Assembly: GCF_963676685.1 (NCBI RefSeq)
Contig: NC_092345.1
Span: 93,930,001-93,994,000 of the forward strand
Source of the DNA: Mytilus edulis
Taxonomy: Eukaryota
DNA: 64,000 bases
Reading direction: 5' to 3'
The position numbers and the translations under genes were made by a program. How positions within the stretch are numbered: the stretch's first letter is position 1; each line of letters starts with the position of its first letter. The notes beneath the pieces are model-generated. The model was not told the origin of the DNA and did no database searches. It was given only the letters and a program-made list of their open reading frames with translations. Positions 47,738 to 50,700 of the stretch are shown piece by piece.

Positions 47738-50700
47738 CTACGACAATTTATAAATAGTTTTATGGTCCATCTCTGTTTCTAAATCTCCAAGTTTACTCCA
47801 CCATTTATATAGGAATCTATCTGTGATAAGTCTGAACCAGGGAGTTATCAAACGTCCTTCACTGTCTGATGTCGCTAAAATAACAAATAAACTTATCATT
47901 AATAACTTGACATATAAAAACATTGCAGGAAGAAACTGGTTAGATAGACATGAAAAGGATGTTACATTTATTTAGCTAGGTGTTACTAGGCTTTAAAACT
48001 TTCCAAATTGTAGTTTTGTCTGTACACATAGAAACTATTATGGTGTAAACACAGCCATTTTTGTCAAAGTGTATTGATGAACCTTAAAGACTTTTCATAA
48101 TCCTCTGGTTTTGTCAGATTAATACACAAGTTCAAAAATTTTAGGTTAAATTCCATACTTCATTACCAGAAAAGAAAGTAAAACAAAGTGACGCCAGATA
48201 TTTCTAAGCAAACCTTAGACAAGGGATTTTAATTGGATGTTTTCATTCTAAGAAAATATCAGCTATATCATTTATACAATGCCTTAGCTGATCTAGACTA
48301 AAAAAAAATCATAAATTACCTAAAAAATCTCTTAGTTGATCCTGACTTAGATATCTGTAACTTTTTACTTCATTTGTATTTATATTAAGATCTACATCCT
48401 TTTGGATGAATAATATATAGTCTATTTCACTTTCTCCCCAGATTCCATCTTCTGGTTGGTTACCAGCCTTGTACTGTATCCTAGTCAAATATTTAAAGTC
48501 ATCTACAGAAACCTGGAAACAGAATTAGTTGTTTAATGGAATACTTGTATTCTGAGACTACTATAACACTACTATTTGACTGGTTAGTATGTGAAGTGAC
48601 AAATCTCTGTGTTATAGTAGTCTCAGTTGTATATAATTGCAAATTTGTCTCAGTGAAGTCTTGTTATAAACTTTTAAGTAACAAGGAGACAAATTAAAGT
48701 CAGATCATTTCCTGATAACTCTGGTTAATATTACATCTGGCATTTATAAAATGAAGGTATCTTTCTCCATGGAAATCATCAGTATAAAAATAGTTGGATT
48801 CTGCTGATTATTTATATTTTGGCTAACAAGGTTTTTCATCTGGAATTTTGATGCCAACCCTATATATAAGCACTCTCGTTCATCACAAATGTGTTGTATA
48901 ACTTCTTACTGGTATATACATTTATATTGATATAAATAGTCAAGTTAACTATTCCCAGCTTCTAACAAGGTCATAATCTTGTTGTATATAAATTCTAAAT
49001 GAATGATGTTAACAAAATATGTTTGACCAATTTCAAAATCTAAACTCAGCTTAGACACAAACTTCAAAATATCGTTTTTTAGAGGTTTCAGGTGTTTGAA
49101 AATTACAAATTACAAGAAATTAAAGAATGTATTTACGTATTTCTACAATTATTTTAGGATTCTACATAGGAAGAACAATCCTAAAAAGGATACCTGTTCT
49201 GGTGATATTCCTGTGTTATAGTAGTGAGTTATAGTAGTCTCAGTAAAAGGGTACCTGTTCTGGCGATATTCCTAATTCATGCTTTAATTTCCTCTGAGCT
49301 GCTCTCCTCACACCTATAGCATTTCCTTCCTCTAGTTCTGGGTCTGTATTCAGTGGATGGCTGCAGCAAGTGTTGGTAAAATTATCTACAATTAAAATTC
49401 AATTAGGATGGAATGTAGATTGTCAGGTATGATATGATGATGACAAGCTTCATACAGGTTATAAAATTAAGTTCAGATAAACATGTAAACAAATCAATCA
49501 TGTTCTTGTACAATGTAAGTATGTGTGGAGTATAGTTAATTCTGATCATAATTCAATTTGCAACAATAAGTAGCATACAACATATTATTATGAAACGACT
49601 ACAAATGTATTTAACCAACCATCCATTTATCTAGATCTTTTAATTTTAATAATGCTTGCTCAAAAGTTCAAATACACAATGTAATAATAGTATATAAGAT
49701 TAAAACATTATTCACCAGGAAATGTAATTTTGGCATCAGATCTTTGTTGTAACAGAAGTTGTCCCTCTTGATTAAACAAAAACACACTGAAGGCTCTGTG
49801 GAGCAAACCTGGAAGATTAAACAAAAACACACTGAAGGCTCTGTGGAGCAAACCTGGAAATGTAAAACTGAAACATTTTTACTATTATTAAAAAAAAGTC
49901 AATGCATTAATACCTGTATAATTATTAAAGCAAATTCAAATATGTCAGAATAACAGGATACATGCCTCATCTCTTCTTCTTATGTTTCTTTCATTTTCAT
50001 GGATTGAAAATAAAATGTGTTTTCATGGATGTTTAATTTATGGTTTTGTTATAAAAGTCTGCATATGTGGCAGCAGAAAATTTGTACTTTCTAATTTTTT
50101 TTTTAATTTGGTGACTATTCTATCATGTCTATAGTCAAGTGGTTACATAAATGTATTATGTGCAATTGGTATAATGTTGTAATGAATGACATGAAGTCCT
50201 GTTCAGTGTTGTTATATTAGGAATATTTTACATGTTTTTAGCATTCATTTTATTTAACTACTAGTAACATGAGTGATAAAAAGATGAACTAAAGATCATT
50301 CAAAAAAGGTTACAAATTTTCAAAAGGTAAACACATACAGATAAATAATTTTGTATCTTTATAGCATTTAAAATGAACATCTATTTTAGTCTTGTATGAT
50401 TTTTGATTTATGTTCATTTATATATTTCAGAGTTTAGTATGACATCCATTATCACTGAACTAGTACACATTTGTATTTAGGGGCCAGTTGAAGCACATCT
50501 CTGGTTTAAGACCCATAGGTGGGGTTCGGCTGTTTTCTACTCTATGGTCAGGTTTTTGTCTCTATGACACATTCCTCGTTTCTATTTTAAATTTTGTTGT
50601 TAACTTCTCTGTATTTCATCATACCTTCATTGATATTTTTAAGGAGATGACAATGTTTCTTTGATGCAGAACCTATCTGTTTGTCATTTTCATCTATCAG

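Follow-up and report, generated by a model that had tools for sequence, protein, structure and literature searches.

IDI1 locus and duplicated acceptor of exon 3

We analysed a window of 64,000 nucleotides from the Mytilus edulis assembly GCF_963676685.1 (contig NC_092345.1, positions 93,930,001 to 93,994,000), and all coordinates below refer to this window. The gene of interest is a six-exon type-1 IPP isomerase gene (IDI1) on the minus strand, in which the assembly shows the acceptor region of exon 3 twice. The features are as follows, in the order of transcription.

52508-52572, minus strand: coding part of IDI1 exon 1, which gives the 264-aa form its N-terminal extension (joint 50800-52508 in 4/4 RNA runs; N-terminus of database protein P0122; sequence)
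50625-50800, minus strand: IDI1 exon 2, with an internal ATG at 50793 (RNA joints; TIGR02150 match)
49815-49859, minus strand: first, transcript-upstream copy of the duplicated unit with the native acceptor; the exon would start at 49853, and the native intron has TTTAAT, a branch-point-like motif, at -35
49770-49814, minus strand: second copy with the new acceptor; the exon would start at 49808, and exon bases of the first copy provide the pyrimidine tract and a weak candidate branch point (-25)
49716-49808, minus strand: IDI1 exon 3, normal 93-nt form, GLLHRAFS...KITFP (joined to exon 2 in RNA contigs X15, X18 and X19; PDB and NCBIfam matches)
49255-49385, minus strand: IDI1 exon 4, NTCCSH motif (RNA joints; TIGR02150 match)
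48320-48512, minus strand: IDI1 exon 5, GESEID motif (RNA joints; TIGR02150 match)
47738-47874, minus strand: IDI1 exon 6, coding part up to the stop codon (RNA joints; sequence)

All five introns are supported by RNA joints. The introns flanking exon 3 measure 771 or 816 nt upstream, depending on the acceptor, and 330 nt downstream. Intron 2 harbours a high-copy repeat (50400-50600) that attracts many unrelated reads and contigs. Each of the four exons tested matched TIGR02150 and, as a fragment, scored below the whole-protein cut-off. Exon 3 matched human IDI1 structures. The mussel protein shares the type-1 IPP isomerase fold with human IDI1 (PDB 2ick, 2icj, 2i6k, 2dho), at 56% identity in the fold alignment; the long mussel form differs from human IDI1 by a second copy of a segment of 13 residues. 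Residues H63, H89, C124 and H126 (P0001 numbering) are invariant in 114/114 aligned proteins, as is the His of the HRAFS motif. We take the HRAFS His to be a metal ligand (human His51), and in type-1 IPP isomerases His and Glu residues are presumably metal-binding, with Cys and Glu catalytic. The exon-5 motif reads GESEID in Mytilus IDI1, against GEHEID in the majority of homologues (H 123, S 23, N 17, R 7, Y 2 and K 1 in the 173 proteins with the motif); judged from these residues, the Ser is at a tolerated position. DNA and protein searches of the 1.37 Gb genome returned one candidate each and no second IDI1 locus or haplotig. In yeast, IDI1 is described as single-copy and essential (PMC13412983).

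The two copies (49770-49814 and 49815-49859) are identical at 45/45 bases, and identity at period 45 extends over exactly 45 bases, which leaves exactly two head-to-tail copies; their junction lacks microhomology. On the minus strand the unit consists of the final 6 bases of intron 2 (TTCCAG) and the initial 39 bases of exon 3. The acceptor TTCCAG|G is thus present twice, with exon starts at 49853 and 49808, 45 nt apart, and exon 3 is 138 nt long from the former and 93 nt from the latter. Because the unit is a multiple of three and stop-free, both frames remain open: counted from the exon-2 ATG, the upstream AG (49853) would yield a protein of 255 aa with 15 additional residues and the downstream AG (49808) the normal IDI1 of 240 aa. 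A perfect in-frame 45-bp duplication of the exon-3 acceptor had been proposed in a preliminary description of this DNA and is present in the assembly as described, down to the sequence of the 15-aa insert. No perfect tandem duplication of at least 15 bases occurred in a block-shuffled control of the sampled 464 kb (window plus 400 kb more), so the 45-bp duplication is not a product of chance.

One copy in other Mytilus sequences

A single HRAFS motif was found in 15/15 Mytilus IDI1 proteins from other sources, namely P0121 and 14 members of the P0013 cluster, with labels including M. edulis, M. galloprovincialis, M. trossulus, M. californianus and M. coruscus; P0124 (63 aa) was left out because the site lies outside its span. 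The closest database proteins to the IDI1 studied here are labelled Mytilus. All three RNA contig sets, which derive from other animals, join exon 2 to the 93-nt form of exon 3; in exon 2, X15 shows no differences to the window and X18 and X19 show 9-10. In the raw-read data of X24 (about 19% of the run sampled, 150 reads aligned, many of them on the intronic repeat), reads at the exon-2/exon-3 junction were too few and no joint was listed there. No RNA read or contig crossed the copy junction among the 24 of 114 aligned pieces listed. The 15-aa insert had no independent homologue among 239 proteins fetched.

Several database proteins were rejected as evidence for the insert. P0001 and P0123, which contain the insert (98% identity), match the window translation letter for letter, as does P0122, which lacks it; all three represent the same DNA and the former two give no independent support. 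P0002 and P0003 have two HRAFS motifs as IDI1-IDI2 fusion models, and P0027 carries 19 unrelated residues ahead of GLLHRAFS, probably from intron read-through. Reads from one-copy animals that reach fewer than 40 bases into exon 3 would fit both acceptors and could account for the long models. Behind both of the longer public IDI1 models (P0001, P0123) stands a single DNA sequence, and they should not be read as a mussel isoform. By the sequences compared, the duplication is not a species feature of the mussel. Since the copies are identical and absent from 15/15 other Mytilus proteins and 3/3 RNA contig sets, we regard the event as very recent, in agreement with the preliminary description.

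Predicted properties of the longer protein

The spacing from HRAFS to LQQR is 16 residues in 177 of 179 proteins, the two exceptions being the long models of the window DNA. Upstream, the distance from the first His to HRAFS is 11 in 168 of 172 proteins, 12 in three and 30 in one. The preliminary description had raised a new isoform as one of two outcomes and had suggested modelling the +15 aa form. AlphaFold2 gave mean pLDDT values of 90.8 for the long and 90.6 for the normal form; in the long form the core is predicted to stay intact and the first copy to form a low-confidence loop (residues 71-80, mean 53). The long-form model superimposes on human IDI1 2ick with a TM score of 0.98 (normalised by target) and an rmsd of 0.8 A. 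The alignment behind the model placed all homologues on the second copy, which biases the loop-out result. Looping out of the extra 15 aa thus appears geometrically possible, and the model is silent on activity. The new isoform is without support, given the almost invariant flanking spacings in the family and the fact that the insert-bearing proteins are the models of this DNA.

Acceptor choice

The two acceptors were compared by pyrimidine and motif counts. They are identical from -6 to +39. Pyrimidines occupy 8/10 positions at -14 to -5 of the upstream site and 7/10 of the downstream site, and over -24 to -5 the counts are 13/20 upstream (native) and 14/20 downstream; the proposal that exon codons supply a usable pyrimidine tract therefore held. 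The upstream site has a full yTnAy candidate branch-point match at -35. With only 6 intron bases duplicated, the native branch point is not duplicated, and the downstream site has a partial candidate branch point at -25, directly before the T tract, and a full match at -9, which is too close. In the one-copy allele an AAG comes after this exon tract, at +42. This AAG is unused in the three RNA contig sets, from which it follows that the tract by itself is no adequate guide to splicing.

Where two 3' sites compete in human introns, the upstream one is favoured overall, and this preference is significantly reduced where both flanking introns are long (PMC9225289). The same source cites duplicated-site substrates of Reed and Maniatis (1986), in which the upstream 3' site was preferred. 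Its comparison covers acceptors of similar strength that are at least 20 nt apart and share one donor; the IDI1 acceptors are 45 nt apart and would likewise be chosen at the first step. In contrast to the human sites, the IDI1 pair is natural, from a mollusc and identical from -6 to +39, and the human data are tendencies that give no ratio. A NAGNAG-type short-distance tandem acceptor (up to about 9 nt, with one shared branch point and tract) is ruled out by the 45 nt between the AGs. We expect that both acceptors would be used, with the normal message as a substantial part.

Comparison with known boundary duplications

Amphioxus 'mirages' (Adh3, troponin C, PGBD5 and the globins BflGb6 and BflGb9) are, like the IDI1 case, tandem duplications of an intron 3' end and exon start with a spare AG, and splicing is reported to be undisturbed by them (PMC3087553, PMC3902484). 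The IDI1 unit also spans the exon-intron boundary and leaves a spare AG at 49808. BflGb9 is likewise a single duplicate, though of the other boundary. The globin units of 150-160 bp are much longer than the 45 bp in the mussel (PMC3087553). Mirage copy number is described as differing among haplotypes; the mussel assembly has two copies here against one in all other sequences seen, and no array of three or more. The IDI1 case further differs in having only two copies at 100% identity, 6 intronic bases and an in-frame, stop-free unit, and it is known here from an assembly. Comparable repeats in lancelet PGBD5 are reported as confirmed by re-sequencing (PMC3902484). Splicing self-rescue, the other outcome raised in the preliminary description, is plausible by analogy with these mirage reports.

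Intron gain by tandem duplication of AGGT, as outlined in the review PMC3443670, resembles the IDI1 case in that the unit contains AG|GT. It differs in that the IDI1 unit spans an existing acceptor rather than the exon interior. A new intron between the copies appears unlikely from its sequence because the donor GTTTGC departs widely from the consensus and an intron of 45 nt would result. The product of such a gain (GT of the first copy, AG of the second) would be the same mRNA as that of simple downstream-acceptor use. A literature search, which was not aimed at this mussel allele itself, found no direct precedent among the results listed. A two-copy acceptor duplication is of a kind already described, and near-identical duplications are frequent in this genome.

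Frequency of duplications around IDI1

Tandem Repeats Finder reported 155 rows in the 464 kb, among them 25 two-copy arrays of at least 90% identity with a unit of at least 25 bases. Removal of 6 arrays that overlapped larger ones left 19, of which 18 are in addition to the IDI1 case (about 39 per Mb). In a scan for perfect duplications 8 passed the filter, and 4 of the 6 with units of at least 30 bases resemble parts of degenerate arrays. One clean perfect duplication besides the IDI1 case remained in the 464 kb, a very uncertain rate of 2 per Mb (95% range 0.05-12). Assuming 200,000 acceptors, about 19 (0.5-108) perfect duplications over an acceptor are expected genome-wide before selection, an estimate built on that one other case. 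No N bases occur in the 464 kb, and hence no gap join is visible nearby. In the IDI1 5' UTR, an 11-bp duplication (52579-52603, just before the exon-1 ATG) is covered without gap by X15 and missing in X18, which indicates that assembly features of this type can be genuine and can vary. Of the hemizygous deletions in other molluscs, 39-85% were flagged for tandem duplications within them (10.1101/2020.09.15.298695).

Two older, imperfect boundary duplications lie in the same gene.

50834-50879, minus strand: exon-2 acceptor region, imperfect copy 58 nt from its partner at 50776-50822 (42/47 alike)
49184-49212, minus strand: exon-4 donor region, imperfect copy 61 nt downstream of its partner at 49245-49273 (27/29 alike)

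In the upstream copy of the exon-2 acceptor, AA stands where AG would be; this copy is out of frame and runs into a stop after 9 codons. In the exon-4 donor duplication, the second GT is intact and out of frame. The RNA seen uses the exon-proximal site at both duplications, and its source animals may lack those copies. A 32-base filler between the exon-4 donor copies resembles a dispersed repeat at 48562-48626 in intron 4, a short element with inverted ends and at least 39 other genome matches that is probably a MITE-like repeat end. In its sequence, the donor duplication looks like a repair event with templated insertion.

Interpretation of the duplication

The explanation to which we tentatively lean is a young, low-frequency but real allele in which both acceptors are probably used and the normal enzyme is still made beside a minor +15 aa form. 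Fill-in of staggered breaks followed by end-joining is compatible with a junction that lacks microhomology, a feature that argues against slippage; the former would then be the origin of the duplication and slippage is disfavoured. The long flanking introns would, through exon definition, give the downstream, exon-proximal acceptor a substantial share, the native branch point would keep the upstream acceptor in use, and the longer protein is predicted to keep its fold with one copy looped out. The IDI1 case would then behave as an amphioxus mirage that has reached two copies, as a tolerated by-product of frequent short duplications and not as a regulatory device. Counting for this explanation are the two older boundary duplications, the near-equal pyrimidine content, the analogous mirage reports and the modelled core. 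Counting against it are the weak downstream branch-point candidates, the unused AAG and the overall upstream preference in human introns. The RNA comes from other animals and is silent on the acceptor choice of a carrier, at the older duplications as well, and the known mirages are survivors.

In a more doubtful alternative, the allele is real and young and the native upstream acceptor dominates, so that mostly the +15 aa enzyme is made and the allele persists through loop-out at the surface or a normal copy on the other chromosome. The branch-point match at -35 in an intact intron, the exon tract and AAG that single-copy RNA leaves unused, the human and Reed and Maniatis data (as given in PMC9225289) and a core that is predicted to stay intact all fit this alternative. 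It sits poorly with the length of both flanking introns, at which the human preference is reduced according to the same source, with the normal splicing described for mirages (PMC3087553, PMC3902484), and with a family that shows almost no length change here and a genome in which a single IDI1 locus was found. The opposite extreme, a mirage at birth, is unlikely: the new acceptor would be used almost exclusively and the native one skipped, which would shift the intron boundary by 45 nt at once and completely rescue a single-copy enzyme. The exon codons Val-Phe-Leu-Phe-Asn would here have to supply both the pyrimidine tract and the branch point, as only 6 intron bases are duplicated.

A local 45-base duplication could also stem from a contig join, gap fill or polishing in an animal that has one copy, and perfect identity, exactly two copies, the complete absence from the other Mytilus proteins (0/15) and RNA contig sets (0/3), and a position within a stretch of otherwise fixed length in an enzyme reported as essential in yeast (PMC13412983) would suit such an error. 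We nevertheless favour a real allele and consider an artefact improbable: neither N nor gap occurs in the window or the 400 kb more, the many similar duplications at 90-99% identity have differing copies that are unlikely to be simple consensus errors, the 11-bp duplication was recovered by an independent run, and the lancelet PGBD5 repeats stood up to re-sequencing (PMC3902484). Far less probable is a selected functional isoform, in which splicing would control the inclusion of a second HRAFS strand that changes the metal binding, stability or activity of the enzyme. Its insert is in frame and stop-free and database models of both forms exist, but these models are identical to the window DNA, short reads would fit both acceptors, the insert is absent from all other Mytilus sequences checked, and the copies are undiverged.

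The duplication points to neither new enzymology nor a new mechanism. If real, the favoured two-copy allele captures boundary repeats at the first step of their formation. It would also be a clean natural experiment on acceptor choice in a mollusc, with a native branch point at one site and a codon-built substitute at the other, the two acceptors being identical from -6 to +39.

Other tandem repeats in the window

Tandem arrays with a 75-base unit, 95-98% alike, occupy positions 35108-36500. Two 21-base minisatellites (10711-10969 and 13530-13767) lie in opposite orientation about 2.6 kb apart, each beside a 16-base array, and are arranged as at the ends of an inverted-repeat element.
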